From the sequence record NC_047740.1: 43,017 bases of DNA. The stretch is one strand, 5' to 3'. A model generated the notes under the pieces. That model was not told the DNA's origin. It searched no databases and saw only the letters and a program-made list of their open reading frames with translations. The translations under genes were made by a program, and so were the position numbers. This DNA is from Enterobacteria phage phiJLA23. Of the stretch, positions 42 to 42,304 are shown one piece after another. The first letter of the stretch is position 1; every line of letters starts with the position of its first letter.

Positions 42-470
42 TCCTTAACANGAAATCAAACATAGTATTTTAATAAAACACAACAACATAGCTATAGAGA
101 GTAGTTACAAGATATACATAGTAATATATATAATAATAATAATACTCTAAACCCTTNTTATATAAGGATTTATAAATGTAACTAATGCGTATCTTCGCGT
201 AAAAAGCGTATACAATTTTCAGCGGATGAGATTGTATACATCGAGTTACATCGGTTACGCGTATATAAAATAGCACGATTTGCTAAAGACTACAGCAGAA
301 GCCTTTGCTATAGTTACTCCATCGAAACGAAACATACTGACTAAGGAATACAAAATGACTAACTTCATCAAATCAGCAATCATCGCAGCAGCAGCAATCA
401 TGACGGTAGGTTGTTCTTCTGGTCCGCGCCCTGACGGATGGTGTGCGACTCAGGCGGGTGATGTTTGCGT
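42..470. repeat. Contig wrap-around overlap, copy 1 (matches ~42305-42720)
   Basis: Near-identical ~430 bp at both contig ends; second copy is N-rich. Circular or permuted genome assembled with overlap, or a terminal repeat. Confidence 0.8.
268..332 (+). promoter_or_regulatory. Composite early promoter: palindrome TAGCA-N5-TGCTA (271-285), hairpin, -10-like TATAGT (309-314), leader CATCGAAACGAAA (320-332)
   Basis: Same ordered module recurs at 13 or more other intergenic sites; palindrome centre about 43 bp upstream of predicted start; RBS aagga and ATG at 355 follow. Confidence 0.5.
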
Positions 471-7150: not shown

Positions 7151-7165
7151 TAGCAATTAGTGCTA
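7151..7165 (-). promoter_or_regulatory. Isolated copy of palindrome TAGCA-N5-TGCTA at the M/L junction
   Basis: ttagcaattagtgctattt; overlaps M-like stop codon and lies about 23 nt before L start; no -10/leader module. Possible operator. Confidence 0.4.
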
Positions 7166-7166
7166 T

Positions 7167-13883: not shown

Positions 13884-13968
13884 TTGTTTCGATTGTTTGA
13901 TTATATCTCAATAGCTACCAAAATAGCACCCCGANGGGTGCTTCTTCCTTGTCAAAAAGTGCTATTAA
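13884..13968 (-). promoter_or_regulatory. Terminator (13917-13945) plus TATAAT -10 and conserved leader; degenerate palindrome over capsid stop
   Basis: Hairpin gcaccc-loop-gggtgc then T-run on minus strand after capsid stop; TATAAT; leader as in other composite promoters. Confidence 0.5.
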
Positions 13969-22829: not shown

Positions 22830-22831
22830 GA

Positions 22832-22966: not shown

Positions 22967-22969
22967 GGG

Positions 22970-23263: not shown

Positions 23264-23265
23264 TT

Positions 23266-23388
23266 CTTCTCCTCACGTTCGCGCCACATGTTCATCAACT
23301 CAAAGTACGCCATTACTTCATCCCCATCTTTAGCCTCATCCATCATTTTTTTACACCATTCACTTGGCAACTCATCATATCCACACAT
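23266..23388 (-). CDS. Hypothetical small protein (40 aa)
   Basis: First ORF after composite promoter 23396-23466; RBS gaggaaag. Confidence 0.4.
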
Positions 23389-23395
23389 TTAATCT

Positions 23396-23466
23396 TTCCT
23401 CGTCTAATTTCGATAAAGTAATGGTAACGCATCCTTGCGATGGATGTTTAGCAATTTGTGCTATTT
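23396..23466 (-). promoter_or_regulatory. Composite early promoter (palindrome 23449-23463, hairpin, -10-like box, leader ATCGAAATTAGAC)
   Basis: Same ordered module as 268-332. Confidence 0.45.
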
Positions 23467-23700
23467 ACTGAAATAAATATCACGNTNCTCACCACGCTNC
23501 TTTCGAAGTTCATAAGCCTTATTAAGCGACTCAATAGCTTCATCAAGGTCTGTTAANANGTCCTTGTGCCCACGCANNCCNCNNANGCGNGNNAACNCAN
23601 CNCGCTCAACAATAAGTACCATACCCTCATCAGCAAGGCATTCGGTGTCGAATCCGTGATTTTCGTGAAAGTAAACTGCCTCATCAACTTCAATTATGCN
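23467..23700 (-). CDS. Probable gene obscured by N-run (hypothetical protein)
   Basis: Long open frame on minus strand through 23485-23700; stop codon lies inside the palindrome copy; start unresolved. Confidence 0.25.
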
Positions 23701-23841
23701 GTTTTAAAAAAATTCAAGCTCATATCTCAATCCTCGTTATTGTGCCGCCATGCGTCTTCTGCATTAACATGGCGTATCTCTCGTCTACGTAATGCAGGAG
23801 CATATCGATACCCCTGCTGCTGAATTTGTGTTCGTAGATTG

Positions 23842-24075
23842 TCACTTGTATTGGCTAGCCAGTTGGCAGCCTGATAGTGCCGTGCAAATCTGCTCGTACT
23901 CAAGCCAGGCCAAGTCCTCTTCCCACGGCAGTATATCTTCAAACTCCTGATTTCGAATCTGATTTACAACCTCTGTAAGCGATTCTGACGCGCTAAACAT
24001 CTTGCGGCTAAGGCAATGCATTAGTATAGCCCTAATCTCGGCAGCATGCTCTTCTGAAAGGTTAATGGTAATCAT
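23842..24075 (-). CDS. Hypothetical acidic protein (77 aa)
   Basis: ORF with helical acidic composition in early cluster. Confidence 0.5.
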   Translation of the reverse strand: MITINLSEEHAAEIRAILMHCLSRKMFSASESLTEVVNQIRNQEFEDILPWEEDLAWLEYEQICTALSGCQLASQYK

Positions 24076-24125
24076 GTTAGCTTCCTATCGTTTAGTTGTC
24101 ATTTGCTTCAATTATGATACTGAAT

Positions 24126-24356
24126 TTACTCGCTTCTACGCCGACCAGTGTAACCCTTACCATTCTCAATCCCCTCAGCCGCCTGAATAAGCGCCGCCGC
24201 CAGTTTGCGCGCTTGGTAGGCAGTATAGTGAGCAAGCGCACATCCGTCGCCATGGTTACCGAAGTTGATATCAATACTCACGATGCCTTCGTAATGTACT
24301 GAGGTTGACACCTCTGTGCGAGCGCCTGCGAAACCTTCAATAATTACAGCTTTCAT
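24126..24356 (-). CDS. Hypothetical protein (76 aa)
   Basis: Preceded by composite promoter 24370-24432 and RBS gagga. Confidence 0.5.
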   Translation of the reverse strand: MKAVIIEGFAGARTEVSTSVHYEGIVSIDINFGNHGDGCALAHYTAYQARKLAAALIQAAEGIENGKGYTGRRRSE

Positions 24357-24369
24357 GGTTATTTCCTCT

Positions 24370-24432
24370 TTGTTGTTGATAGGGTAATCATAGCTGACTA
24401 CCCAATTTATTGTTTAGCAATTTGTGCTATAT
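24370..24432 (-). promoter_or_regulatory. Composite early promoter (palindrome 24415-24429, TATGATTAC, leader TATCAACAACAAA)
   Basis: Palindrome also encodes the last residues and stop of the upstream gene. Confidence 0.45.
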
Positions 24433-24974
24433 TCACCATTCGGGAGAGCTTTCGCTTTCCGGTAGAACTGTATGGCCTTCTCCACCTCATCGGCATTATA
24501 GCCATGGATTGTTGTTTGCGGTGGCACGTAGTTTGAGCGTGGCACGTCGGATCGGCACTGACTGCACCAGTTTTGCACGTCGTCCTTATCCATCTCAACC
24601 AGGGCCGGATGAACATAAATCTTATCGCCAATGAGGCAAACAATTCCCGCCTCTTGTAGTTCTGGGATGATGTTATTTGTCAGGTCATGCATAATCCCTT
24701 CGCGCCCGACGAATGGCTGGACATTTCGTATTGCCTCGTATAGAGATCGAATGCCAACCACTCCATTCCAGCCATGGCGGCTAATCCTGCTAACTACGAC
24801 ACCGTATTTGTAGCTCAACTTGACGCACAGCATCTCTTCGGCGCTGGGCCAGAAATTGAATGATTGGCGGTATCCATTAGTACTGATTGCCACACGAAGT
24901 GGCGGCAGGTTATCTTGCCTGGCGACTTCCATCACCTGGTCATCAGTTAACTTATCCTCGTTGAAATCAAACAT
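24414..24974 (-). CDS. Hypothetical protein; truncated paralog of the P-loop ATPase 26758-28341 (shares its N- and C-terminal segments, lacks the ATPase core)
   Basis: N-terminus MFDFNEDKLTDDQVMEVARQDNLPPLRVAISTNGYRQS and segment VVGIRSLYEA...CLIGDKIYVHP align with both ends of the 527-aa protein; strong RBS aaggag. Confidence 0.6.
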   Translation of the reverse strand: MFDFNEDKLTDDQVMEVARQDNLPPLRVAISTNGYRQSFNFWPSAEEMLCVKLSYKYGVVVSRISRHGWNGVVGIRSLYEAIRNVQPFVGREGIMHDLTNNIIPELQEAGIVCLIGDKIYVHPALVEMDKDDVQNWCSQCRSDVPRSNYVPPQTTIHGYNADEVEKAIQFYRKAKALPNGEYSTNC

Positions 24975-25237
24975 TATTTAGTCTCCTTAATCATTTCCTG
25001 ATATGCGTTAATCATAGCTACCGCACCCTTCAGTTCATCTCCACTCATTCCTGCTACGCTGGGGAAAGCTTAAGTAGCCTAGCTTTAAACTCGCTTACCG
25101 CTTTCTCCCTTATTGGACTGTTTGTCTTAGCTCGNGGTTNCNTNNNNACNACGCNGAANTNCATNCAGAAGANNATTTTCTGTGCTGCGATGGACTTGGC
25201 TGCGTCGAATGTTTACCATTTATTTGAGGATTGAGAT

Positions 25238-25477
25238 ATGAAAATTCGCTGCACCAATTGCATTACAAGTACCGACAAGAAAATACTAACACCATTCGTA
25301 AAAGGCTCTTTATACGACGCTGAGCGTCTAATCATTAACGGCAAGGCAATCCCGAACGAATGGGTTATTAATGGCGCTGAGCGACCACACAAGCACGATT
25401 CTGGATGGATTGCCATTACAGGCTGGAAGGTTGGAGTGTTTATTCCTGGTATTGCAACTTTTGATGAGGTTAAGTAA
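25238..25477 (+). CDS. Hypothetical protein (79 aa)
   Basis: RBS gagga 7 nt before ATG; first plus-strand gene after divergent intergenic region 24975-25237. Confidence 0.55.
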   Translation: MKIRCTNCITSTDKKILTPFVKGSLYDAERLIINGKAIPNEWVINGAERPHKHDSGWIAITGWKVGVFIPGIATFDEVK

Positions 25478-25630
25478 ATGCTAAAGCCATCTGACTTGAA
25501 CTATTACGATCTAGAAACCATAGCCAAGTACAGCGGTAAGGGTTGGCCTGTTGGTGACTACTTCAAAGAAGATTTGATTGAGAGCTTCAACATCGTCCAG
25601 AAGGCAATTGCAAAAGCAGCAAAGAAATAG
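25478..25630 (+). CDS. Hypothetical small protein (50 aa)
   Basis: ATG overlaps upstream stop (TAAATG); stop TAG lies in palindrome copy 25628-25642. Confidence 0.35.
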   Translation: MLKPSDLNYYDLETIAKYSGKGWPVGDYFKEDLIESFNIVQKAIAKAAKK

Positions 25631-25688
25631 CACGAATTGCTAAAGCCCTTCGGGGCTTTTATTGTATATTCATCTCATCGAAACGAAA
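25626..25688 (+). promoter_or_regulatory. Composite early promoter (palindrome 25628-25642, terminator hairpin gcccttcggggc + T-run, TATATT, leader CATCGAAACGAAA)
   Basis: Palindrome centre about 42 bp upstream of predicted start. Confidence 0.5.
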
Positions 25689-25702
25689 AAAACAAAAGGA
25701 AA

Positions 25703-26062
25703 ATGATTATGATTAACATGATCACTAAAAANGGCATCANCTCAGATAACAATCTGTTTAAAGCTCGCGTTAAAGATGGTATTGAGCAAATCAAGATTCA
25801 TGGTAAATGGCAAAATCTCACTGAGCGGGGGCGTTACATCAAGACTAAGACTCTTTATGTCACATTTGTTAACCATAAATCAGGAGTATCAAAGTCATTC
25901 AAGCAAGGTCGTCGCTATCAGGTAGAAATGACCGCATCTCTTGGACAGAACGCTGGTAAAATATTTGATGAAGATGGTGACTCATGGACGCTGATTCGCT
26001 CTGAAGATGTTGGATTTACAACTGTTTGCGGAACTTATAAATTCGAGAGCCAATACAAATGA
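25703..26062 (+). CDS. Hypothetical protein (119 aa)
   Basis: ATG 25703 after RBS aaagga (ORF track starts at a non-ATG codon, 25637, inside the palindrome). Confidence 0.55.
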   Translation: MIMINMITKXGIXSDNNLFKARVKDGIEQIKIHGKWQNLTERGRYIKTKTLYVTFVNHKSGVSKSFKQGRRYQVEMTASLGQNAGKIFDEDGDSWTLIRSEDVGFTTVCGTYKFESQYK

Positions 26063-26253
26063 ATGAGACAGTAAGAATTTACATAACAAAAGATTCAATT
26101 TATTGCAAGTCTATACAACACGGCACTAAGTACAGATACTGCAAAGATAGAGGCTATTTTTGCGTGGTTGATTTCATTACTAGAAAATGGTTGCTTGAAA
26201 CTTTCATAGATAAAATGCCTAGTAATAAGCTATCATCTGGCGAAAGGTTTTAA
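26059..26253 (+). CDS. Hypothetical Cys-containing protein (64 aa)
   Basis: ATGA overlap with upstream gene. Confidence 0.5.
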   Translation: MNETVRIYITKDSIYCKSIQHGTKYRYCKDRGYFCVVDFITRKWLLETFIDKMPSNKLSSGERF

Positions 26254-26255
26254 TT

Positions 26256-26312
26256 AATAGCACTTTTTGCTAATGACACTACCCGCTTCGGCGGGTATAT
26301 TTGTTTCCATCA
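26256..26312 (+). promoter_or_regulatory. Composite early promoter (palindrome 26258-26272, hairpin acccgcttcggcgggt, TATATT, leader CCATCAAGAAGACAAAC)
   Basis: Same module; starts 2 nt after upstream stop. Confidence 0.45.
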
Positions 26313-26338
26313 AGAAGACAAACACTAAGGTGAACAAA

Positions 26339-26455
26339 ATGAAAAACATCTCTAAAGCAGTTGATGCGGTAATGGAACAAGTAATTAAGTTTGGTTTCTT
26401 TGGCTTCATGGGCGCAATCGCTGTTGTAGTTGGCAAATGTCTGGTTGGTCTTTAA
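26339..26455 (+). CDS. Small hydrophobic membrane peptide (38 aa)
   Basis: RBS aaggtg before ATG 26339; C-terminal FGFFGFMGAIAVVVGKCLVGL. Confidence 0.4.
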   Translation: MKNISKAVDAVMEQVIKFGFFGFMGAIAVVVGKCLVGL

Positions 26456-26517
26456 TGGCACTTTTTGCTAAAGACCTTAACAACAAAAATTGATATATTC
26501 TCTTCATCGAAACGAAA
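26454..26517 (+). promoter_or_regulatory. Composite early promoter (variant palindrome TGGCA-N5-TGCTA 26456-26470, TATATT 26494-26499, leader CATCGAAACGAAA 26505-26517)
   Basis: Same module, left arm one mismatch. Confidence 0.45.
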
Positions 26518-26537
26518 TACATTAAAAGGGCTAAAAA

Positions 26538-26717
26538 ATGGATATCATGACTACTATCGAAAACATCAAACCTGGCATGATGGTAAAAATGGGGCCACTG
26601 TTCCGCAAAGTACTTCACGTTGACCTTAAGGAGAATATCATCACCGTAATGATTAGAGGTCGCGCAAAGCTGTATCTTCCTCATAAAGGTCAGATGATTG
26701 AAGTTCGTATCAAGTAA
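26538..26717 (+). CDS. Hypothetical small protein (59 aa)
   Basis: RBS aaaaggg before ATG 26538; terminator-like hairpin gccccttcgggggc 26724-26737 follows. Confidence 0.45.
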   Translation: MDIMTTIENIKPGMMVKMGPLFRKVLHVDLKENIITVMIRGRAKLYLPHKGQMIEVRIK

Positions 26718-26757
26718 ATAATCAAGCCCCTTCGGGGGCATTTAGAGAGAGATGATA

Positions 26758-28341
26758 ATGTTTGATTTTAATGATGACAAATTGACTGTTGAACAAGTAA
26801 TGGCTGTTGCCGCTCAGGATGGATTACCTCCTTTACGTGTTGCTATTAATGCGAACGGTTATCGCCAGAGCGCATCATTCTGGAAAGCTCCGGTTGAGAT
26901 TGATTCTACTGGCGACAAGTATCCTGTTATCTCGCTTGGTAACGACTATGATGTAGTTGGCAAACTATCAAGCAACATTGCTCGTTCTGTTCAGTTTCCT
27001 GAATCATCTGCTTATATGCACTTCCTTGGTTGCATCTCGGCAGCTATGTTAGGTCGCTTTACGGTTGAGTATCACGGAACTCAACAACCAACATCACTGT
27101 ATGTAGTGACCAGCCAGCCTCCATCAACTGGTAAATCCGCCATTAACTCGCTGTCTCTGGCTCCAATGATTGCAGAGACTGAGCGACTAAACGATCTGCG
27201 TAAGCGTGACCGTAAAAAGATTATGGCCAAGCTGTCGGCTCTGGCTAAAGAAATGAAGCAGGAGAAGTCGCCTTCTGAGATGGCTGGTTTGTTTGAGGAG
27301 AAGGAGGAGCTGGAAGATAAGCTCGAGAAACTTTGCGACATCGTATTCCCTGTATCTGATACTACTCCTGAAGGTCTGGCACGCATTAACCATCGTCAGG
27401 GTAGCTTCGCTGTCATCTCGGATGAGGCGACGAGCGTCAACTCACTGCTTGGCATGACCTATGGTGATGGAACAAAGAAAACAAACAGCGAACTGGTACT
27501 TAAGGCCTGGGATGCTGGTAACGTATCTATCGCGCGTGCGAACGCAGAGAACAACATGAGCTTTATTGCTATGGGGTGTATTTCTGTAATTGCGCAGGAT
27601 GAAACAATAGTCGCAATCATGAATGCTGGTGCTCGCGGTATTGGTGTATCCGAACGTTTCTTGCTTGTGCGTGAAAAGTCATTCCTTGGTGAGCGTGTTT
27701 TCGTCGATGATAATGGCGAGTCAACATATGAGCCGATTGACGGAGCGTTGAAGGCTGATTACTTCCGTCTTGTTCATGAAATTATGAGTGAGCAAGATGT
27801 GAAGTTGACTATTAGTAACTCAGCAATGAAGCACCTTAACCGTGCTCGACAGGAAATGGAGCCACACCTTGCGGATGGCGGCAAGTATTCACACACAATG
27901 CTCCGTGGCGCACTAGGTAAAATGGATAAGCAGGTTATTCGCCTTGCTGCCGTTCTTCACACCATACGTAACTGGTTTAATCCAAATGGCGGTAGTCCGC
28001 AGAAGTCCAGGGAGATTGGACTGGAAACGATGCAGGAGGCTTTATTGATGTTTGAAGAACTTAGCAAGACTTACTTATCTTCTGCTAACGCAGCTGGTCA
28101 TGCTGGCGATAACGCTGAGATGAACAAGTTAATTGATATCCTTATCAAGCAAGGCAAGAACAGTAAAGGAGTTGTGGGTTTGCGCTCACTTTATGAAGCT
28201 GCGCGTAAGGTTCGACCTTTCGAGTCACAGGCTGGTGTTATGGCTAAAATTAAAGACCACTTACTCCCGATGCTTGATGATAAAAACTATACCTGCCTGA
28301 TTGGTGACAAGGTATATATCAATCCACGGCTGCTGGGGTAA
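26758..28341 (+). CDS. Replication-associated P-loop ATPase (putative initiator or helicase-loader type)
   Basis: Walker A SQPPSTGKSA and Walker B-like FAVISDEATS; N- and C-termini homologous to the 186-aa protein at 24414-24974; start at second ATG (MFDFNDDK) by paralog alignment. Confidence 0.65.
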   Translation: MFDFNDDKLTVEQVMAVAAQDGLPPLRVAINANGYRQSASFWKAPVEIDSTGDKYPVISLGNDYDVVGKLSSNIARSVQFPESSAYMHFLGCISAAMLGRFTVEYHGTQQPTSLYVVTSQPPSTGKSAINSLSLAPMIAETERLNDLRKRDRKKIMAKLSALAKEMKQEKSPSEMAGLFEEKEELEDKLEKLCDIVFPVSDTTPEGLARINHRQGSFAVISDEATSVNSLLGMTYGDGTKKTNSELVLKAWDAGNVSIARANAENNMSFIAMGCISVIAQDETIVAIMNAGARGIGVSERFLLVREKSFLGERVFVDDNGESTYEPIDGALKADYFRLVHEIMSEQDVKLTISNSAMKHLNRARQEMEPHLADGGKYSHTMLRGALGKMDKQVIRLAAVLHTIRNWFNPNGGSPQKSREIGLETMQEALLMFEELSKTYLSSANAAGHAGDNAEMNKLIDILIKQGKNSKGVVGLRSLYEAARKVRPFESQAGVMAKIKDHLLPMLDDKNYTCLIGDKVYINPRLLG

Positions 28342-28345
28342 TTAA

Positions 28346-28681
28346 ATGTTCATCCTTGATGTGTTCAAGTTCTGCGAGAGCTACGAAAAGTTTAACAGGC
28401 AGCACCTGGCGGTATTCATTTACCGCCACAAAGAATGTGAAAGAATGGCTAAGGCAGCTGGAGTTAATGCGCGTTACTTTGCATCATCTGCGTCAAAGGA
28501 GTTTCTGGCAAGATGCATGACTGAAGGTTACATCGATGGAGTTAATGGCAGTTACTGGAGCAAAGGAAGCACGAAGCGACCATTCGGTTTTAGCTTTAGG
28601 TGCCTCGGAGGTGAGAGTGATAAGTACACCAATGAGATGATGACCATAAAAGAAATGACAGACGACCAACTGTTCGCGTAA
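28346..28681 (+). CDS. Hypothetical protein (111 aa)
   Basis: ORF 5 nt after ATPase stop; ends at bidirectional terminator. Confidence 0.5.
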   Translation: MFILDVFKFCESYEKFNRQHLAVFIYRHKECERMAKAAGVNARYFASSASKEFLARCMTEGYIDGVNGSYWSKGSTKRPFGFSFRCLGGESDKYTNEMMTIKEMTDDQLFA

Positions 28682-28685
28682 AATA

Positions 28686-28710
28686 AAGGAGCCATTAGGC
28701 TCCTTTTTTG
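28686..28710. terminator. Bidirectional terminator (hairpin ggagccattaggctcc, T6)
   Basis: Between convergent genes ending at 28681 and 28695. Confidence 0.7.
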
Positions 28711-29099
28711 TTTCCTGCGAATCTTAAAGCGAAGTAAGTTAGCAAACCTGAAACTAATCCAGCCAGAATACCCCAGACTAAAGAGTCAACCCCAGAGTTT
28801 TCAGTGCTATGAATTTCAATCTTTTCAGCTGTTATTGTGTTAGCTGAGAGACCCGTAGCAGCAGTCTTTTTATGGCTTGATGAATCTACATCTCTGTTAG
28901 TTGAGTTGCGCATATCGCTCTCTGTTGAGCTAGATTTGTCTGTCTGGCTGGATAATCCAACGCCAGTTTTCTGGTTTGACTCGCCAACCTGCGCCGTTGC
29001 CTCGACGCCATCCTTTGCTGGTAAGAAATCAGAAATGGCTGACATAGCAGAGCAGCCAGTCAGTGATGCAATTACCAGAACTACAATTCCGAGACGCAT
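28695..29099 (-). CDS. Unimolecular spanin (u-spanin, T1 gp11-type)
   Basis: N-terminal lipoprotein signal with lipobox LTGC plus C-terminal transmembrane helix LVWGILAGLVSGLLTYFAL in one polypeptide; directly after endolysin. Confidence 0.75.
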   Translation of the reverse strand: MRLGIVVLVIASLTGCSAMSAISDFLPAKDGVEATAQVGESNQKTGVGLSSQTDKSSSTESDMRNSTNRDVDSSSHKKTAATGLSANTITAEKIEIHSTENSGVDSLVWGILAGLVSGLLTYFALRFAGNKKGA

Positions 29100-29564
29100 A
29101 GCTTAATCTCCGCGTTACGCCTGTTAACCAGGCCTTTGCTAACAACTTTNTTACCACCAACGCTGATTTTATTCCATAGATAACGCCTCGCATCCTCCCC
29201 TGATATCACCACGATTTATGCGCCTTATAGCAGTTGAATTGCGCATTGCACTGGTTCCAACATTGAATGAAAAACTGTACAGCGCCGCCCTGGTGCTAAC
29301 TGGAACATTAACCTTCAGCGCTTTATCTACAGCAGCTCTATGAATTGAAAGGTGCTTCATCAGGAGTGCATCGCATTCTCTCTGGGTGTACTTTTTACCG
29401 AGAATAACATCAGGACCAGTGATTCCCTGGCAAACAGTCCACACTCCAGCAATATCTCTGTAAGGCCTGTACTTAACTCCTTCATGCTCATTCAGGAACG
29501 GAATAGCTAATGCCATGGCTCCAGCCACAGCCGAACCAATGACCTTATTCTTGAAGCTCATCAT
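29081..29564 (-). CDS. SAR endolysin (T4-lysozyme-like), frameshifted in this assembly
   Basis: N-terminal signal-anchor-release segment; catalytic spacing E..D(+9)..T(+6); annotated frame stops at 29169 but +1 frame continues to 29081 with lysozyme-like C-terminus (GLVNRRNAEIKL). Confidence 0.7.
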
Positions 29565-29776
29565 TTACTCCTGATTCTCATTGCCTCTCGAATGTCACCA
29601 TCCTCAAGTGCTTTATGGAGCGCCTTACTGTCACGCCATCGCAGCCATGCGCCAAAAATACCAAAGCATACGGCGATAACTAAGCCGATAATGCCGATGA
29701 TTGTGTTGTCAGATAAACCGCCGCCCATAGCTACTCCGCTACCGGATAAGGCGGCTGCGTCATAGAAATGCTTCAT
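29561..29776 (-). CDS. Holin (putative)
   Basis: 71 aa with hydrophobic helix and charged C-terminus; ATGA-coupled upstream of endolysin; RBS aagagg. Confidence 0.6.
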   Translation of the reverse strand: MKHFYDAAALSGSGVAMGGGLSDNTIIGIIGLVIAVCFGIFGAWLRWRDSKALHKALEDGDIREAMRIRSK

Positions 29777-29806
29777 GTTGCGGCCTCTTTAAGTTGATTT
29801 GATTAA

Positions 29807-29866
29807 ATAATACCAGATATTAAACTTTGACATAAACGAAAAAAGGCAGCCTTAAAGGCCGCCTGT
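29807..29866 (-). promoter_or_regulatory. Terminator hairpin (29845-29865, T6) followed by TATTAT -10-like box (29807-29812) upstream of lysis cassette
   Basis: aggcggcc-ttta-aggctgcc then tttttt; -10-like hexamer; RBS; holin ATG. Confidence 0.45.
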
Positions 29867-29884
29867 TTTCAAGTTGATGTTTCT

Positions 29885-30064
29885 TATAAGTTAGTCTGCG
29901 ATAATGAATTCCACCAATTCTCCATCAATCGGGGTGAAGATCCAAGTCATGTCATCTCCATAAATCTTGTAATTACCATCCCCCTGGTACTCACCACTGT
30001 AAGGGTTGTTTACAGTGAAAGGCAGTGATTTTGATTTGTTGCTAACGCAGAATAATTTAGTCAT
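29885..30064 (-). CDS. Hypothetical small protein (59 aa)
   Basis: ORF filling the gap between 30077 and the terminator; below ORF-track cut-off. Confidence 0.35.
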
Positions 30065-30076
30065 TTTGATAATCTC

Positions 30077-30265
30077 TTAACGGTTTACGCAAATAAGTGT
30101 GTTTACATTAATTGGGAAGCAGTTACCGCCCATGGTCTTAATCATTACGAACGTACAGCTAGGGTAATACTCAAGGCTTGTGGCCTTAACTTTTTGCCGT
30201 TGGCAATTTGAGAACAAAACCTCATCACCCACCTTTACCATATCAGCTTTAATTGTTTGCAACAT
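30077..30265 (-). CDS. Hypothetical protein (62 aa)
   Basis: ORF coupled to upstream gene. Confidence 0.5.
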   Translation of the reverse strand: MLQTIKADMVKVGDEVLFSNCQRQKVKATSLEYYPSCTFVMIKTMGGNCFPINVNTLICVNR

Positions 30266-30450
30266 TAACGCTCTCCAAGTGCCGCAAGGATTGCATAAGC
30301 GATCTCACGTGCATTCTTAGCAGTAAGGTTAATAGTGTCAACCTTTACATCTTCTTCGCTAGTTCCGTAAGCCTGTGCAATCCGAAATGTCTTACCAAAA
30401 CCAACATCTTTAACTTCAATCTGTGCATCTGATTGTGTGAACTTAGCCAT
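30265..30450 (-). CDS. Hypothetical protein (61 aa)
   Basis: Preceded by composite promoter with leader CATCAAAACAAAAC and RBS gagagga. Confidence 0.5.
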   Translation of the reverse strand: MAKFTQSDAQIEVKDVGFGKTFRIAQAYGTSEEDVKVDTINLTAKNAREIAYAILAALGER

Positions 30451-30451
30451 C

Positions 30452-30520
30452 TTTGTATCCTCTCGTTTTGTTTTGATGGAGTAAATATACCCCCTCTTTT
30501 NATTTGTNTTTTANTTNGTG
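30452..30520 (-). promoter_or_regulatory. Composite early promoter (TATATTTAC, leader CATCAAAACAAAAC; palindrome degraded by Ns)
   Basis: Module order conserved; upstream half-site region contains Ns. Confidence 0.35.
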
Positions 30521-30843
30521 CTAGTTCNTGTNTNCNTTNTNNNTNNNNTTTCTAGCGTATTCATCATCTCCTCAAGCTTCTCTGCATCAATAGAGGACTT
30601 AACCCATTGCAACTTCACATTGCCATCATTATCAACAAGGCTAGATACACCTTTAACCATGTAGCCCTGAGGAATTAGGTTACTCACATCGCGACCGTGA
30701 CCATCCCCAGCCTTAGCCAACTTGCTGCGACGCAGCTCTACGTTACGAATATTCATACCGTACTTCTCTGCGATTGCCTTGTTAGTCATACCGTTAGCCA
30801 GTTCTTGCTTTAACTCTTCGTTGGTGATTTTAGCTATAGACAT
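30511..30843 (-). CDS. Putative HTH DNA-binding protein (3' end uncertain, runs into N-run)
   Basis: N-terminal helix-turn-helix-like segment TNKAIAEKYGMNIRNVELRRSKL; ORF passes through Ns 30490-30550. Confidence 0.45.
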   Translation of the reverse strand: MSIAKITNEELKQELANGMTNKAIAEKYGMNIRNVELRRSKLAKAGDGHGRDVSNLIPQGYMVKGVSSLVDNDGNVKLQWVKSSIDAEKLEEMMNTLEXXXXXXTXTSXX

Positions 30844-30931
30844 TATTTAATTTCCTGTTAGCAGATTATGAAGTACATGATTATAAAGGTTAATGGCATA
30901 GCCATCAACGGTAGTAATGTTTTCATCTGAA

Positions 30932-31000
30932 TCGTCTCTCGTTTCGATGAACACACTATACGCCATCCATGGCGATGTGTTTTAACAAAAAGTGCTATTT
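30932..31000 (-). promoter_or_regulatory. Composite early promoter (variant palindrome TAACA-N5-TGCTA 30983-30997, hairpin cgccatccatggcg, TATAGTGTG, leader CATCGAAACGAGAGACG)
   Basis: Same module; about 100-nt leader before the HTH gene. Confidence 0.45.
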
Positions 31001-31252
31001 AACTTCTTTTAGCCAGTAATCAAGAAACTCAGTTTCAAGCGCAGCAATTGCTGGAGAATACTCACTAGGCATCATCATATTGCAGCCAGGTGAGTAGTAC
31101 ATCAACTCAGCCTTACCAATCTCAATTTGCACCAGTACATCGAGGTAGTCCGGAGGAATCCACTCAGAGAAAGGAATCTTCCGATAAGGCTTCTCACCAA
31201 AAAACACAACCTGATACTTACTCTCATCAAAATCCAGACCAGGTAAATTCAT
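30995..31252 (-). CDS. Hypothetical protein (85 aa)
   Basis: ORF; stop TAG inside the palindrome copy. Confidence 0.5.
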   Translation of the reverse strand: MNLPGLDFDESKYQVVFFGEKPYRKIPFSEWIPPDYLDVLVQIEIGKAELMYYSPGCNMMMPSEYSPAIAALETEFLDYWLKEVK

Positions 31253-31488
31253 TTCTTCGCACCTTTCTTAAATATCTTCTTACCTTCCTCACGATACATT
31301 GCGAGGCTAGGCGTTGCTGGAACTCTTACATACTTGCGTGGCCGCTGGTTCATATAACTAAACTTCCCATTGAAAACTACAGATATGTCATCAATATCAA
31401 AGTATTTACCTATCATCTTGATGTCATCCTGCAATCCCGCCTCTCCACAATGCGCCCATACAGCGGCGCGTCCGGTTTCAACTATCAT
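31249..31488 (-). CDS. Hypothetical protein (79 aa)
   Basis: ATG 31488 overlaps upstream small ORF stop (ATGA); ORF track starts at 31533. Confidence 0.45.
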   Translation of the reverse strand: MIVETGRAAVWAHCGEAGLQDDIKMIGKYFDIDDISVVFNGKFSYMNQRPRKYVRVPATPSLAMYREEGKKIFKKGAKK

Positions 31489-31610
31489 AGGCCGTAAGCC
31501 ATTTTTAAAGCTTCTCGAGCGCAAATCCAGCAATATTCAGATCCAGTCTTAACTGCGTCATTTGCGAAAGACTGCGCAATCTCGAACATCTCTTTGTCTA
31601 TAATTTTCAT
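31485..31610 (-). CDS. Hypothetical small protein (41 aa, CxxC)
   Basis: First ORF after composite promoter 31612-31686; RBS gaggg 7 nt before ATG 31610. Confidence 0.35.
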   Translation of the reverse strand: MKIIDKEMFEIAQSFANDAVKTGSEYCWICAREALKMAYGL

Positions 31611-31611
31611 C

Positions 31612-31686
31612 TCTTAACCCTCTCATTTGCTGATGTAATTAATATAATCCATCCTTGTATTTTAGTTTTAACAAAAAGTGCTATTT
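31612..31686 (-). promoter_or_regulatory. Composite early promoter (variant palindrome 31669-31683, TATATTAATTAC, leader CATCAGCAAATGAGAG)
   Basis: Same module; palindrome overlaps upstream stop. Confidence 0.4.
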
Positions 31687-32297
31687 ACTCATAAACAAGA
31701 AAACTTACATGCTTACCTTTCGCATCATTACACCCGTAGTACCCATCAAATTCATTATGTAACTTCCATGCAAATCCGTCATCGCTAACTATTTCAACCT
31801 GGTCATTAATCGGGTCAAGTTTGAATTCATACTCATTGAGCAGGGTGAATGAGCCGTTCGTCATTACGCAAGTCGCAGTAATCATGAAAAAATCCTCCGG
31901 GCAATCTTTCTTCATTTCTTCGATATCAGCAATCATTCGGTCNNNCCATGTTTCGATATCAGTGTTCAGATAACCCNCTTCTNAACTATTTAAACCNGTT
32001 CATTAATCGGGTCAAGTTTGAATTCATACTCATTGAGCAGGGTGAATGAGCCGTTCGTCATTACGCAAGTCGCAGTAATCATGAAAAATCCTCCGGGCAA
32101 TCTTTCTTCATTTCTTCGATATCAGCAATCATTCGGTCGCGCCATGTTTCGATATCAGTGTTCAGATAATCCTCTTCGAAACTATAATCAAGACACCAAG
32201 CTAAATCCCAAACATCATTTTTATATCCAGCTTTACTCAACTCCTGCGCCACCATTGCCTGAAAGAGTTCCCATTGCTTATCAAAGGTTAATTTCAT
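31685..32297 (-). CDS. Hypothetical acidic protein (about 155 aa in the true genome; interrupted by an artifactual ~198-bp tandem duplication)
   Basis: ORFs 32079-32297 and 31685-31936 share ...RMIADIEEMKKDCPEDF; copies differ by homopolymer length and Ns at the junction. Confidence 0.45.
31786..32181. repeat. Tandem ~198-bp duplication with N-rich junction (probable assembly artifact)
   Basis: Unit 31786-31983 repeats at 31984-32181; Ns at 31943-31997; A6 versus A5 run between copies. Confidence 0.7.
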
Positions 32298-32491
32298 TAT
32301 TCTGACACCTCATCAAATTTTTCGCCGAATGCGTTTTTAACAGTCTCTAAATCATCTTTGTATGTTGGGCTAACTTCGAATGAGTAACCGTCTCCATCAT
32401 CAAGAATATAACCCTCAGGGGTGATTGCTAATTCATATTCATAACCAGTTTTGCGTGACTTGTACAGCTTTTCAGTGTAGATAGTAGTCAT
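32297..32491 (-). CDS. Hypothetical acidic protein (64 aa)
   Basis: ATG 32491 after composite promoter and RBS gagagag; ORF track extends to 32611 through the promoter. Confidence 0.45.
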   Translation of the reverse strand: MTTIYTEKLYKSRKTGYEYELAITPEGYILDDGDGYSFEVSPTYKDDLETVKNAFGEKFDEVSE

Positions 32492-32504: not shown

Positions 32505-32568
32505 CTTCGTTTCGATGAAGTAACTATATCGCATCCTTGCGAAATCTCTTTAGCAATTCGTGCTATTT
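32505..32568 (-). promoter_or_regulatory. Composite early promoter (palindrome 32551-32565, hairpin atcgcaaggatgcgat, TATAGTTAC, leader CATCGAAACGAAG)
   Basis: Palindrome centre about 42 bp upstream of predicted start; also encodes ...STNC-stop of VRR-NUC gene. Confidence 0.5.
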
Positions 32569-32939
32569 GATAGATAATCTGTAATTGCCAACTTAAACAT
32601 TTCAAACCCATAACAGATTGCTGCGTAACCTCCTGTTTCTGATACCTTTTCCAGGAACTCCTTTTGCTCCTTTGAAACCTTGCTATCTGATTTTATTGCT
32701 CGCTTAAGCTCTATTGCGGCAAAGCCATTTGGTCCAATCAGTAGAATATCTGATACACCCTTAATTACTCCCTCCTGCTTGTCCTTCATTGCTGTGCCGA
32801 TAGACTTGAGACCTTCATTCTTCACGTGAAAAGCAAATATCTCTGGATGGTTGTGGCGAACCCAAGCTATTGAATTTATTTGGTGAACAACCTCTTTAGC
32901 CTTGTCCGTGCTTGTTTTGTCGTGAAAAACCTTAACCAT
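32550..32939 (-). CDS. VRR-NUC domain nuclease
   Basis: 129 aa with VRR-NUC-like motifs (GxPD-type SDILLIGPNG, AIELK); coupled to helicase gene (stop/start overlap at 32939). Confidence 0.65.
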   Translation of the reverse strand: MVKVFHDKTSTDKAKEVVHQINSIAWVRHNHPEIFAFHVKNEGLKSIGTAMKDKQEGVIKGVSDILLIGPNGFAAIELKRAIKSDSKVSKEQKEFLEKVSETGGYAAICYGFEMFKLAITDYLSNSTNC

Positions 32940-34882: not shown

Positions 34883-34896
34883 AATATCAAATGCCT

Positions 34897-34966
34897 TTAA
34901 TGTTCGTTCGATTGACGATATAATAACAGCCATATAAACCAATGTTTAACAAAAAGTGCTATTGAG
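34897..34966 (-). promoter_or_regulatory. Composite early promoter for helicase operon (variant palindrome TAACA-N5-TGCTA 34947-34961, leader CAATCGAACGAAC); in divergent region abutting HTH gene RBS
   Basis: Palindrome ends 6 nt before the RBS gaggtgag of the plus-strand HTH gene while at about -42 of the helicase promoter. Confidence 0.5.
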
Positions 34967-34974
34967 GTGAGAAA

Positions 34975-35448
34975 ATGGATTCAATTGACAAGCGTACTCT
35001 TAATGGTAACAACGGAACAATTCGCACAGAAGACAAGAAGCCGCGTAAGCGTCCATCAGGTTACTATGTACTAAAGGATGAAGTGAGAGCGGGATTAAGG
35101 GCGCGCCTTGAGATTGTATTGGACTTCTACGGCAGCAAGGCCAATCTAGCTAAGCAGCTAAAGGTTACGCGCCAGGCTGTAGAAGAATGGTGTAAGCGGG
35201 GAATGATTTCAGCTCGCGGCGCACAGCTTGCGCATAATCGATATAAGCGAACTGGCGAGGGGTTCAGGGCTACATTCTGCCGACCTGATTTACAGTTCGA
35301 CGGTAACGGCAAGCCTCTAACACTGCGATGCAAGAAGCGTCAGATGCTTCGAGTTGTTACAGAAGCTGAGTTAGCAACCAAGCCGCAGCGTAAATCATGG
35401 CGAAAGGTTAAGAAAGAAAGAGAAGAAGCACGAAAAGCTAAAGAGTAA
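34975..35448 (+). CDS. Putative HTH transcriptional regulator (Cro/YdaS-like)
   Basis: HTH-like segment SKANLAKQLKVTRQAVEEWCKRG; basic C-terminus; RBS gaggtgag; terminator 35454-35485 follows. Confidence 0.6.
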   Translation: MDSIDKRTLNGNNGTIRTEDKKPRKRPSGYYVLKDEVRAGLRARLEIVLDFYGSKANLAKQLKVTRQAVEEWCKRGMISARGAQLAHNRYKRTGEGFRATFCRPDLQFDGNGKPLTLRCKKRQMLRVVTEAELATKPQRKSWRKVKKEREEARKAKE

Positions 35449-35500: not shown

Positions 35501-36424
35501 ATGAATTACGACAAGAATGAAGTAATACCTAAAATGGCTGGATTGTGGAAATCATTTTATGCAAAGGAGCTTGGTTGGAATGATAGACACCTTAGCAAGA
35601 AGCACGGGCCGTGCCCTTATTGCTTTGGTACTGACAGATTCAGGTTTACAGACGAAATAGGAAGCGAAAAAGGTAATGGGGCCGCAGTTTGCTCTAAGTG
35701 CGGCAGTGACTCAGGAATAGGCTGGGTTATGAAATGTTCCGGCCTTAGATTTGTGGAAGCTATAAATTTACTTGGCGACTGGCTTAATTTGACTCCCGTC
35801 GAAATCATAGTGAAGGCAAACAAAGCAGCGAGCCGAGTTCAGAGATATAACTTTGGCGCTCAGGCATCCATTGAATCAATCGAGAAGGTAATCTCTCGCA
35901 CCAAGTCTGTAGAAATGACACAGCTTACGAGATTTGAAGCAATTATTACTGAACGGGAATACAAAATAGGAATAAAGGGGTCTGGAGAAGAAATTATAGC
36001 CGAGCAATGCTTTATGGTTTACGAGGATGGTTTATCAGATGAGCCTTGTAACGTAAAGTTTATAGATGAAGAGGGTAATGAGTCATATCTCGCAAAAGAC
36101 TACACTCGCGGCTCGGTTGTTCCGGTAAGTAAATGTAGTGATGGCGCTATCTACCTCACTGTTGGCTGGATTAACGCACTACATGTATCGGCATGCACAA
36201 AAAGGACAACTTACGACTGCCTAACTCACCACAACTTAGAAATGGTTGCTTATGAACTCAGGAATAAAGAGTGCAGGATAGCTTGCTTAGCTGATGAAAA
36301 GGAGTCGCTTTATGTTGCTGATGATAGAGGTCTAAAAGTCGTAATACCTAAAGGTGGCAATTTCAAGATGGGGCTTGAAAGAAGGTTATATAACCCGCAA
36401 GATCTGATAGATAAGCATTCATAG
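35501..36424 (+). CDS. Putative DNA primase (zinc-binding N-terminus)
   Basis: Cys motif CPYCFG...CSKCGS typical of primase zinc-binding domains; adjacent to helicase/regulator. Confidence 0.5.
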   Translation: MNYDKNEVIPKMAGLWKSFYAKELGWNDRHLSKKHGPCPYCFGTDRFRFTDEIGSEKGNGAAVCSKCGSDSGIGWVMKCSGLRFVEAINLLGDWLNLTPVEIIVKANKAASRVQRYNFGAQASIESIEKVISRTKSVEMTQLTRFEAIITEREYKIGIKGSGEEIIAEQCFMVYEDGLSDEPCNVKFIDEEGNESYLAKDYTRGSVVPVSKCSDGAIYLTVGWINALHVSACTKRTTYDCLTHHNLEMVAYELRNKECRIACLADEKESLYVADDRGLKVVIPKGGNFKMGLERRLYNPQDLIDKHS

Positions 36425-39251: not shown

Positions 39252-39680
39252 TTAAAACGGAATATCATCTTCATCACTAAATCGGCTTTGTTGCTGCGGC
39301 TGCTGTCTCTGTTGCTGTTGAGCTTGTTGTCGCTGCTGCTGCTGTTCTGATTCACCTCCTCGCTGACTAAACATCAATCGAGGATTCTGCAACTCAAGCG
39401 TAATATATGTCTTGCCATTATGTTCGCGCTCATTAACCGCTAATGAATCGCCGCTCACAGAGATAACTTTTCCTTCCTGAAATGCTTCGTCATACCAGCT
39501 AATTTGCGCCTCGCTAGCAAAGAAGGTAGCTCGATAATTACTATACTTACGCTCTCCATCTCGTGTTTTATAAGATTCGCTCATTTCGATAGCGTACATC
39601 TTCCAGTTACCCTTGGCGTTCTGACCATCTTTACTGAACAGCGTCTTACCAACCATATCTAAGAATTTGTCCCAATTCAT
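39252..39680 (-). CDS. Single-stranded DNA-binding protein (SSB)
   Basis: OB-fold-like N-terminus, Gln-rich linker, canonical acidic C-terminal tail ending DEDDIPF. Confidence 0.8.
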   Translation of the reverse strand: MNWDKFLDMVGKTLFSKDGQNAKGNWKMYAIEMSESYKTRDGERKYSNYRATFFASEAQISWYDEAFQEGKVISVSGDSLAVNEREHNGKTYITLELQNPRLMFSQRGGESEQQQQRQQAQQQQRQQPQQQSRFSDEDDIPF

Positions 39681-40380: not shown

Positions 40381-40445
40381 TTTGTTGTCGATGAGGTAAC
40401 TATACCCCATCAATTTAATACCGTTTTAGCTATTCGTGCTATCTT
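40381..40445 (-). promoter_or_regulatory. Composite early promoter (variant palindrome TAGCA-N5-AGCTA 40427-40441, TATAGTTAC, leader CATCGACAACAAA)
   Basis: Same module; palindrome encodes ...STNS-stop of exonuclease gene. Confidence 0.45.
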
Positions 40446-41394
40446 CGTACTTCTTCATCTCATACTCAGGAACTTGCAGTTCCATCTCTGTTTCGCCAAA
40501 TCCGTAACCAGGCCAAATATCAAGTTTCTTGCATTGCTTGTATGTGGATAGGGCGCTCATGTATTGCAATCTACCAACCTTTAAGTGCTCTTTTGTTATC
40601 GTGTAGCACATTGGAAGGAATGGGCTTTTCTTTTCCTGGCAAAGAAGCTGAACAACAACTCGACGCTTCTCATTAAAGGCGCGAACAAACAAATCATGCT
40701 GAAGCGCCATTTTTAGCAAGTAACCATGCTTGAAGGCCAATCTCCCAAATCCAGATGGAGATGCGTCGCTAGTCGTCTTGTAGTCACGGATATAAACTAC
40801 ATCATCAACGACATCGACATGGTCAAGACGAACCTTAACGCCGCACTCGTTAATCTCACCGAAGATTGATAACTCTCGCTGAGCGGTTTTACTGTTCACT
40901 ATCGCATTGTATGCAGGAATGCCACACAGCACCTCTCGCATCGCATGTACTGTGTCAAAGTCTTTAGCTGATACAATCTCGCGACCGTTCGCTTTAACCT
41001 CGTTAGAGCGCTGAATATCCCACCATACGTTAAGTGATTCACCGCTCAGCGCCAGAATCTCCATTAATTCTGGATAATCCTTACCAGATGTTCCAGCAAT
41101 ACCCATCGACTTCAACCGAGTTGCCAAAGCAGTCTTGCTAGTAATCAGATCATCAAACTCTTCTTGCGCTGGCTGGCGATAGTAAGTCGCATCGAATACA
41201 GAGTTTTCAAGAATAACCGTGTGGGCTAATGTACCGAACTTTAAAGCCTTATTGCTATCATCATGCTCTGCAAACTTATAAGCAGCGGGGCAAGTTGAGA
41301 AGATGTGAGCCAGACCAGAGCCAGACACATGGTCTGACTCCTTGTGGTAGGCTTCGTTGGTTAACTCGTCGCTAGTGTAAACCTTGAAGCTCAT
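40426..41394 (-). CDS. PD-(D/E)xK-family recombination exonuclease (lambda Exo/YqaJ-like candidate)
   Basis: 322 aa with DxK-containing motif VVYIRDYKTT; adjacent to Erf and SSB. Confidence 0.6.
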   Translation of the reverse strand: MSFKVYTSDELTNEAYHKESDHVSGSGLAHIFSTCPAAYKFAEHDDSNKALKFGTLAHTVILENSVFDATYYRQPAQEEFDDLITSKTALATRLKSMGIAGTSGKDYPELMEILALSGESLNVWWDIQRSNEVKANGREIVSAKDFDTVHAMREVLCGIPAYNAIVNSKTAQRELSIFGEINECGVKVRLDHVDVVDDVVYIRDYKTTSDASPSGFGRLAFKHGYLLKMALQHDLFVRAFNEKRRVVVQLLCQEKKSPFLPMCYTITKEHLKVGRLQYMSALSTYKQCKKLDIWPGYGFGETEMELQVPEYEMKKYEDSTNS

Positions 41395-41665: not shown

Positions 41666-42049
41666 TTATTTCAACTTAAGAATCTCGCTATTCTTATCAA
41701 CTAGATTAGCAATAAGCTCATCTTTAGCCTTTAACTTTTCGCAGGCAACCTCAAGCTGAGCCTGATATTTGTAAACCACCTCTTGAGAGTCATGGTAACG
41801 ATTTGACTCGAACTTAACATCGAAGTATTGCTCATCAAGTTCCGCAGGATTTCCACACTTATCCATGCTCTTAAACATGAACTTCTCAATCGCGTAATAG
41901 TTATCCTCAGCTCTGTGCTGCGCGGCTCTATTTAGCATCTCCCTTATNNCCCTTANTACGTGGTCATGTCGCTTTCCCGTGATCTCGGCAATTTCAAGGC
42001 TACTCATGGTNACGTTTTCATCAATATTAATCAGATTCATATCTATCAT
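41666..42049 (-). CDS. Rha-family phage regulatory protein
   Basis: Motif MSSLEIAEITGKRHDHVxRxIREML typical of Rha N-terminal domain; start taken at ATG 42049 (ORF track starts 42079 on GTG); Ns at 41945-42010. Confidence 0.65.
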   Translation of the reverse strand: MIDMNLINIDENXTMSSLEIAEITGKRHDHVXRXIREMLNRAAQHRAEDNYYAIEKFMFKSMDKCGNPAELDEQYFDVKFESNRYHDSQEVVYKYQAQLEVACEKLKAKDELIANLVDKNSEILKLK

Positions 42050-42185: not shown

Positions 42186-42304
42186 TGTATATAGCTGTAA
42201 AACTCACATAAATACGCTTTGATGCTCTGTACGCCGCATGAATGCTGAATGTAACCCTTGTAACCAATGTATCCACCAAATTTGCACCCTATCTATATAT
42301 ATAT

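Follow-up and report, generated by a model that had tools for sequence, protein, structure and literature searches.

The recurring S-T-N-C/S protein ends of a T1-like phage are encoded by a conserved, probably promoter-associated DNA repeat

Our analysis concerns the gene ends of Enterobacteria phage phiJLA23 (NC_047740.1), whose whole stretch of 43,017 nucleotides is called the window below, and a short repeated DNA motif on which many of these genes end. A first-pass annotation of the sequence had pointed out that three genes finish with a similar peptide, and the open reading frames (ORFs) bear this out at the positions it had given: the VRR-NUC gene (32550-32939 on the minus strand, 129 aa) ends with ..NSTNC, the gene of a 186-aa protein with ..EYSTNC and the exonuclease gene with ..EDSTNS. 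At each site the last residues and the stop codon are read from a copy of a motif that we write in the direction of transcription as ATAGCAC-N3-TTGCTA, counting offsets from A1, the first A of ATAGCAC, and naming each copy by the position of A1 and its strand. The tail recurs across genes because S-T-N-C/S is frame 2 of this conserved DNA element: (A)AT AGC AC(N) (N)(N)T TGC TAA is translated as x-S-T-N/F-C and a stop (the TAA at offset +14), and a TAGCTA variant gives S-T-N-S. Frame 1 meets the TAG of ATAGCAC (offset +1) and the protein ends with ..K/E/Q-TAG; in frame 0 the motif holds no stop and the gene ends on a TAA that it brings along, mostly at -3..-1. Some copies (TAAATAGCAC...TAA) have stops in all three frames.

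The window phage belongs to the genus Rogunavirus, family Drexlerviridae (T1-like), and is of the Rogue1 type, as judged from a 6-kb stretch around the VRR-NUC site that is 99.8% identical to Escherichia phage C119 and 98-99% identical to Rogue1, AHP24 and relatives. All three tail sites are unchanged in the independent genome of C119, orthologues from phage phiEB49 that read into the motif at two sites end with ..SNSTNC and ..ENSTNS, and the sites lie inside clean blocks of sequence; therefore the tails are not artefacts of the N-containing window. Alternative gene models that would move these stops upstream of the motif are impossible, as the reading frames stay open up to and into the motif and their products are true homologues of known proteins.

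The motif TARCWNNNNGTGCTA has 11 exact matches in the window compared with 0.09 expected, and none of 100 shuffles reaches 11; a scan with a position weight matrix returns 12 strong copies and four weaker ones, among them 13965- and 42541+, the latter being the counterpart of 270+ in the terminal overlap. All window copies are oriented toward the next gene on the same strand, and their spacers fall into the classes GAA, AAA, TAA, GAT and TTT. The stop codon of the upstream gene lies within -6..+16 of A1 in 11 of the 13 distinct copies (12 strong and one weak). The TAG at +1..+3 is used by the genes upstream of copies 23464-, 25627+ and 30998-, the TAA at +14..+16 is used at copies 24430-, 32566- and 40442-, which are the three tails, and a TAA of the gene's own is found within -6..0 at copies 7166-, 13965-, 26257+, 26455+ and 31684-; a same-strand upstream gene is absent at copies 270+ and 34962-. 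That other copies provide or abut the stop of the gene before them (7151, 13965, 25628, 26251, 30995 and 31685) proved true at every position named, and two more gene-end sites were found, 23461 (copy 23464-) and 26453 (copy 26455+). The features are collected in Table 1.

Table 1. Motif copies, the gene ends that they overlap or abut, and predicted promoter features in the window
Feature	Position	Strand	Remarks
VRR-NUC gene end, N-S-T-N-C + TAA	32550..32567	-	AAT AGC ACG AAT TGC TAA; encoded by motif AATAGCACGAATTGCTAA
VRR-NUC site motif core ATAGCACGAATTGCTA	32551..32566	-	A1 = 32566; GAA class
Small spacer hairpin TCGCAaggaTGCGA between motif and -10	32529..32542	-	predicted fold
-10-like TATAGT, 22 bp past TTGCTA	32523..32528	-	putative promoter; predicted +1 = A at 32516 within CATCGAAACGAA
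186-aa gene end, (G-)E-Y-S-T-N-C + TAA	24414..24434	-	ORF 24414-24974; overlaps motif core 24415-24430, AAA class
RecE-like exonuclease end, (Y-)E-D-S-T-N-S + TAA	40426..40446	-	ORF 40426-41394, 322 aa; overlaps core 40427-40442, variant ATAGCACGAATAGCTA
Copy	23449..23464	-	TAG 23463-23461 is the stop of 53-aa ORF 23461-23622
Copy	25627..25642	+	TAG 25628-25630 is the stop of 50-aa ORF 25478-25630; terminator-like hairpin in spacer
Copy	30983..30998	-	TAG 30997-30995 is the stop of 85-aa ORF 30995-31252
Copy	31669..31684	-	abutting TAA 31687-31685 (-3..-1) of 83-aa ORF
Copy	26257..26272	+	64-aa ORF stop 26251-26253 (TAA, -6..-4), 3 nt ahead of motif
Copy, ATGGCAC variant	26455..26470	+	TAA 26453-26455 of 62-aa ORF overlaps A1
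Copy	7151..7166	-	abutting TAA 7169-7167 (-3..-1) of 116-aa minor tail gene
Weak copy ATAGCACTTTTTGACA, TTGACA	13950..13965	-	TAA (-2..0) of 328-aa major head gene overlaps A1 by 1 nt
Copy heading helicase transcription unit	34947..34962	-	divergent region; no gene end
Copy upstream of lipoprotein gene	270..285	+	repeated with Ns at 42541-42556 (terminal overlap)

The whole genomes of phages T1, TLS, RTP, phiEB49, Klebsiella phage NJS1 (Webervirus) and K50_evo21 were compared with the window, which makes seven Drexlerviridae genomes, and the 127 copies in them that score above the best shuffled-sequence score form our basic set. The addition of 120 IMG/VR stretches to these seven genomes gave a larger set of 311 cassettes with both a -10 hexamer and an upstream ORF, which group into 132 site families. 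Each of the six other genomes holds 10-15 copies by regular expression, with like placement at gene ends.

Comparison of orthologous gene ends, which had been proposed as the way to decide whether the tail is kept as protein or as DNA, answers in favor of DNA. The VRR-NUC protein ends with ..LSNSTNC in the window, C119 and phiEB49 and with ..LENSTNC in K50, and at the TAG of the motif with ..EMMK in T1, ..DATK in TLS, ..MISK in RTP and ..DAIK in NJS1; in a metagenomic orthologue (P0007, 93-94% identical) one extra A just before the unchanged motif makes the protein end with ..YLSK. In an eight-way DNA alignment of this site the AAATAGCAC and TTG.TAAA columns are invariant, and the adjoining coding DNA has a mean identity of 64%. 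The exonuclease gene continues into the motif in three phages, the window phage and phiEB49 (STNS) as well as NJS1 (GTNS), and its orthologues of T1, TLS, RTP and K50 end ahead of it, while the phiEB49 orthologue of the 186-aa protein ends with ..LTGK at the motif TAG. Orthologues with mixed frames occur in 15 of the 132 site families (for example ..DGLPE* and ..DGLPNSTNC*, or ..CLANQK* and ..AIANSTFC*). A functional C-terminal peptide would be expected to be conserved at the protein level independently of the DNA, and no such conservation was found in these comparisons. Therefore, the S-T-N-C/S tail is conserved as DNA only and not as protein, and the recurring tail that had been presented as a protein feature is one of three frames of a DNA motif, among which orthologues move freely: some end with ..K-TAG, others with ..STNC-TAA or at a stop that the gene itself supplies.

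The position of the tail in the proteins was also examined. The Pfam VRR_NUC domain covers residues 40-112 of the 129-aa protein and the phrog_7327 profile stops at residue 181 of the 186-aa protein, so that both tails are outside the recognized domains. In the AlphaFold model of VRR-NUC (mean predicted local distance difference test score, pLDDT, of 90.8) the last helix is predicted at residues 112-124 and residues 125-129 as coil, and residues 121-129 have a mean pLDDT of 70 compared with 91-97 in the five preceding 10-residue blocks. S-T-N-C is probably an unstructured appendage and not a functional peptide.

The copy after the exonuclease gene (40427-40442, minus strand) keeps a site-specific variant (..GCAC-AAA/GAA-TAGCTAAAC) in Rogunavirus, phiEB49, NJS1, T1 and K50, which suggests that single promoter sites are old and orthologous between genera. 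The 186-aa protein (24417-24974, minus strand) has in its residues 60-126 a segment of about 65 aa in common with the C-terminal part of the family of the phage's own 529-aa helicase (phrog_2373). Its sole tblastn matches in TLS, RTP, NJS1 and K50 are to residues 60-126 (residues 4-48 in NJS1) and end at the ORF termini ..NPALMG, ..NPRLLG or ..NPSFMR of what are presumed to be the corresponding helicase genes.

The use of the three frames across the family is strongly skewed. Among the 100 copies in the seven genomes with an upstream ORF of at least 40 aa, the stop lies at +1 in 44, at +14 in 14, at -3 in 11 and at -2 in 9, which means that 58 of the 100 upstream genes use a stop of the motif core; in C119 four of the eight TAG stops are supplied by the motif. 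At the level of the 132 site families the TAG frame, the tail frame and frame 0 with its own stop are used in a ratio of 85.6 : 29.6 : 16.9. The excess of the TAG frame is the opposite of what would be expected under selection for the tail, and it suggests that the shortest extension is favored. It may be added that UAG with a following C terminates weakly in E. coli, although the motif TAG is the preferred gene end across the site families. The stop triplets are kept regardless of their use: where no gene stops on them, TAG and TAA are present in 0.79-0.82 and 0.93-0.96 of such copies within the set of 127, about the same as where they serve as stops, and the non-stop positions GCAC and TTG are equally invariant. 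Therefore, the motif is constrained by something other than stopping, and its stops are used opportunistically. The description of the element as a translational stop context holds in the passive sense that its stops are used, but not in the sense of a stop signal maintained for that purpose, since TAG and TAA are equally conserved where no gene ends.

A promoter-like signature is found downstream of the motif, whose column consensus in the seven genomes is aAATAGCACtatTTGcTAAAa. A sigma70-type -10 hexamer, accepted when it has A2, T6 and at least 4/6 matches to TATAAT (mostly TATAGT, TATTAT or CATAAT), starts at +38 in 74% of the 127 copies and at +37..+41 in 114 of them (90%). It is preceded by TG at -15/-14 in 46 of these 114 cassettes (40%), and a conserved c-A located 7 nt past the hexamer is the predicted -1/+1, followed by tc.aAA (window consensus CATCGAAACGAAA). 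The distance between TTGNTA and the -10 is 22 bp in 74% of the copies. A sequence with at least 4/6 matches to TTGACA at 16-18 bp is present in just 2-8% of the copies, so an ordinary sigma70 -35 is lacking; an extended -10 promoter can do without one. Because the -10-like hexamer lies 22 bp downstream, the centre of the motif comes near -42: the motif spans approximately -52 to -31 from the predicted +1, and its imperfect dyad TAGCA-N5-TGCTA is centred at about -42. The distance from A1 to the ATG of the next gene has a median of 75 nt (interquartile range 71-77), and in the VRR-NUC cassette this ATG is at 32491-32489 on the minus strand. The suggestion that the motif is the upstream part of the next promoter agrees with this promoter-like cassette, which would be expected to fire as a promoter judging by its sequence.

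TTGCTA itself was rejected as an ordinary -35, being 22 and not 17 bp from the -10, with no -10-like hexamer at 17 bp. The consensus sequences of the UP element and of the sites of IHF, Fis and lambda cII (TTGC-N6-TTGC) would fit neither in sequence nor in spacing.

Some copies show departures from the usual cassette. The 7166- cassette is cut at an N at 7144, which leaves the motif just 39 nt from the next ATG, and its C119 equivalent (C119 11080-11160) is intact, with TACAAT at +38 and then a small extra gene, gp16. In the weak copy after the major head gene (region 13900-13965, minus strand) TTGCTA is replaced by a perfect TTGACA, and a strong terminator hairpin (AGCACCCnTCGGGGTGCT-ATTTT) follows at once. 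A copy between the primase and tail-fibre genes, which points against both, is conserved in three genera (T1 34902+, RTP 33762+, phiEB49 12450-); it lacks a -10 at +38 and leads into a terminator, and its window equivalent was not picked up.

Most cassettes also contain a predicted hairpin between the motif and +1, with a mean z of -2.4 relative to shuffles and 59% of values below -2. In 42 of the 114 cassettes it is a stem of about 10 bp whose 3' arm extends over the last part of the -10 and over the discriminator (e.g. GGGGTA...TATAGT-TACCCC, AAGGCCA...GGCCTT), and in 32 a short hairpin of about 6 bp in the spacer is followed by a T-rich -10, which looks like a terminator. The stem sequences differ between sites, and often the -10 and discriminator are in the loop and 3' arm. 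Examples are found in the window at 24380-24412(-), 40392-40425(-) and 30950-30980(-), in T1 at 1450+, 2269+ and 3535+ and in TLS at 1523+, 4061+ and 5136+.

Taken together, these data lead us to the reading, with a probability of roughly 0.75, that (a)aATAGCAC-N3-TTG(C/T)TAAA(ac) is a DNA-level recognition element upstream of promoters and that the S-T-N-C tail is a frame-dependent by-product of it. Several points weigh against this reading. The hairpins of variable sequence over the spacer and the -10 go beyond a simple promoter model, the 22-bp gap rules out TTGCTA as an ordinary -35, and for the reader of the motif there are just candidates. A search of the literature for transcript 5'-end mapping or RNA-seq of T1-like, Drexlerviridae or Webervirus phages gave nothing usable, and promoter activity is accordingly a prediction from sequence. 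The frame use is not uniform, and Phe tails (STFC) are mildly scarce among the frame-2 read-ins (7.0 compared with about 11.8 expected, p about 0.05); the scarcity looked strong in the seven genomes (1 of 14) and is borderline in the larger family-level set, from which the preceding values come, so no bias is claimed. Because of these last two facts some weak selection on the residues appended to the protein may be conceded.

One could argue that the tail is a selected C-terminal peptide common to several phage proteins, for example a degron, a localisation or interaction tag or a carrier of a reactive Cys, since it is found on unrelated proteins throughout the family (NSTNC 18 times, NSTFC 9 times, and others) and the frame-2 tails mildly favor N over F, 12 of the 14 in the seven genomes being of the GAA/AAA class. 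However, these residues follow the spacer class of the DNA, including a radical change between N and F, and single-nucleotide indels remove or add the tail among orthologues with no change in the DNA motif; 15 site families are mixed in frame. Additionally, the tail frame is about 3-fold rarer than the TAG frame, the tail falls outside Pfam and PHROG domains in a predicted coil, and untranslated copies of the DNA are conserved as well. This explanation is largely refuted by the orthologue comparison, and we regard it as very unlikely. It is somewhat easier to imagine that the motif was partly selected for stopping translation in several frames, as a safeguard against ribosomes entering the promoter and hairpin region. 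Two frames carry built-in stops that the majority of upstream genes use, some copies stop all three frames, and half of the TAG stops of C119 come from the motif. Against this stand the equal conservation of TAG and TAA whether used or not and the equal invariance of GCAC and TTG. Moreover, the third-frame TAA is mainly present when it is itself the stop of the gene, and the weak context of UAG-C is not what one would choose for a designed stop. Thus it is not likely that stopping shaped the motif.

The same cassette could also act in RNA, where the 15-nt dyad of read-through transcripts would fold into a 5-bp stem with a pentaloop, resembling boxB, beside the second hairpin and would serve antitermination, processing, 3'-end stabilisation or a roadblock of the type of the stoperators of mycobacteriophage L5. 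In favor of this, the element always has the orientation of transcription, the dyad varies chiefly at pair 3-13, with G:C in 82 copies and G:T in 41 (the latter a G-U wobble in RNA), and the hairpins downstream have site-specific stems, some of them terminator-like; a stoperator was also considered by the authors of the TLS re-annotation, who described the same repeat (PMC11447400). Yet the dyad has no two-sided compensatory changes, just mismatches such as C-A and A-C. At copies 34962- and 270+, which head divergent units, an upstream transcript is not expected. The spacing to a sigma70-like -10 with A2, T6 and TG extension is fixed, as is the C-1/A+1 context. T1-like phages are virulent, and we know of no repressor in them. 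The fixed -10 spacing and the copies at divergent heads thus favor the DNA-level promoter-upstream element over an RNA-level one, which we consider improbable, if slightly less so than a stop-driven origin. Finally, ATAGCAC-N3-TTGC resembles the TGGCAC-N5-TTGC of sigma54 (-24/-12) promoters, one copy (26455+) even reads ATGGCAC, and enhancer-binding sequences are mentioned in the TLS paper (PMC11447400). This candidate was rejected, as the invariant GG is AG in 116 of 127 copies, the distance from the GG-equivalent to GC is 8 and not 10 nt, and a conserved sigma70-type -10 is located 22 bp downstream; it is almost certainly wrong.

If the motif is indeed a promoter-upstream element, the gene ends could have arisen in the following way. 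The 16-22 nt element would sit at approximately -52 to -31 of sigma70-type, often extended -10, promoters of early and middle genes in all T1-like phages, and the upstream gene would run right up to it because these genomes have almost no spacer DNA. A gene arriving in frame 1 would then end with ..K/E/Q-TAG, one arriving in frame 2 would gain five motif-encoded residues (x-S-T-N/F-C/S) before TAA, and one in the third frame would need its own stop right before the motif. The observation of the first-pass annotation is confirmed, and its interpretation holds in part: the STNC/STNS ends probably arise as a by-product where the compact genome packs genes against a known repeat that is found throughout the family, contains stop codons and appears to belong to promoters.

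The readers of the motif are candidates only: the alpha or sigma subunit of RNA polymerase, or a class-II-type activator such as a Cro-like helix-turn-helix (HTH) regulator. Host polymerase may read the motif unaided, a possibility raised by the fact that the motif also precedes the leftmost early genes. An activator of the class II type would be attractive by its geometry and by the presence of a candidate protein, a conserved 157-aa Cro/YdaS-like HTH protein encoded at 34975-35448, whose ATG (34975) is 13 nt from the motif copy 34962-. The regulator and helicase genes are divergent, and the roughly 90 nt between them (34886-34975) hold this copy. In TLS the promoter of the HTH regulator gene, P57, is one of just three canonical sigma70 promoters (PMC11447400), and the direct repeat DR11 lies between P57 and the start codon of the regulator (TLS 35832-35921). 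This layout would allow autoregulation. One could go further and propose that the cassette is a promoter architecture so far undescribed, with the motif at -42, 22 bp from an extended -10, a variable hairpin and an initial transcribed ATCGAAACGAAA, which would drive the T1-like early/middle programme via a factor such as the Cro-like HTH protein. The position of the stop (TAG at +1 or TAA at +14) might then set the intrusion of ribosomes on the hairpin and couple translation to read-through. We regard this extended proposal as speculative and rather doubtful.

As for the record itself, the window and C119 are colinear over the full length of the window, with 13 blocks whose joints are near 7144, 13919, 15340-15397, 17056-17165, 19584-19633, 23576-23594 and 25139-25166, and further at 30513-30559, 31984-31989, 39638-39655 and 41927-41930. 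They fall on N-rich stretches and short duplications (19508-19584 / 19636-19712; 31787-31989 / 31984-32185), and they also match segments found in C119 only, including HNH endonuclease genes, a DNA-repair exonuclease and gp16. Because of this coincidence the record looks like a draft assembly and not like the result of true rearrangements. The window ends 33-415 and 42304-42686 are copies of each other. Tandem Repeats Finder gave no hit in 19400-32400, and a repeat search there returned two near-identical duplications of 100-200 nt, at assembly joints.

For annotation these findings mean that T1-like proteins ending with NSTNC, NSTFC or STNS carry a motif-encoded appendage, and that such endings are not a signal of a conserved peptide, a domain or paralogy. 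The element stands at nearly all early and middle transcription units of this classical phage family, of which TLS, for one, has just three canonical sigma70 promoters (PMC11447400), and its precise geometry (centre at -42, 22 bp to the -10) makes it directly testable by promoter assays.

The element as such is already known as a repeat of TLS, T1, Rtp and Rogue1. The 2024 re-annotation of TLS described a 21-nt direct repeat (DR) with the consensus aaATAGCACnnnTTGnTAAAA at 21 places (DR1-DR18/21), oriented with transcription about 76 nt before start codons and divided into three spacer classes, A, T and G (AAA, TTT, GAA); the repeat was also reported from T1, Rtp and vB_EcoS_Rogue1, and its role was left open between a stoperator, an enhancer-binding site and a UP element (PMC11447400). 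Our TLS motif matches coincide with the published list (PMC11447400). The copies analysed here share with this family the consensus, the orientation, the distance of 75-76 nt to the start codon, the three spacer classes and the T1-like host, the loops of the 127 copies being CTTTT in 46, CGAAT in 40, CAAAT in 10 and CTAAT in 9, and the element itself is no different. What is added beyond the published description (PMC11447400) is that the repeats supply or abut the stops of upstream genes, that their spacing to a -10 is fixed at 22 bp and that hairpins accompany them; it is the promoter geometry and the hairpins that keep the element of interest. The punctuation between operons, which had been called unusually tight, is on the contrary the norm for T1-like phages, as all seven Drexlerviridae genomes examined are alike in this respect.

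Among well-studied systems, class II sigma70 promoters (CRP or FNR at -41.5, lambda cI at -42 of PRM) are similar in that an imperfect dyad would be centred near -42 from the predicted start, in the often extended -10 and the lack of a usable -35 at 17 bp, as well as in the conserved gene of a Cro-like HTH regulator, a candidate activator, beside one copy. They differ in that the dyad here is asymmetric, with an invariant C and T flanking the spacer and a right half that is either TTGCTA or TTGTTA, and in that the motif here also precedes the earliest genes. The stoperators of mycobacteriophage L5 (Brown et al. 1997, as cited in PMC11447400) are likewise present in many copies of a short asymmetric site, oriented with transcription and placed in very short intergenic gaps. 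However, these sites reportedly are roadblocks of the gp71 repressor of a temperate phage with no fixed relation to a -10 hexamer, whereas the phage here is virulent and a -10 lies at a fixed distance in 90% of the copies; because of this spacing a promoter role is preferred to that of an L5-type stoperator. Signals embedded in genes are known from T7, whose class II/III promoters overlap gene ends, and from the overlapping signals of phiX174, and there too regulatory DNA over the 3' end of an upstream ORF dictates residues and spacer DNA is minimised. In contrast to these cases, a single motif with stops in two frames has here produced stereotyped C-termini in more than 100 gene families.

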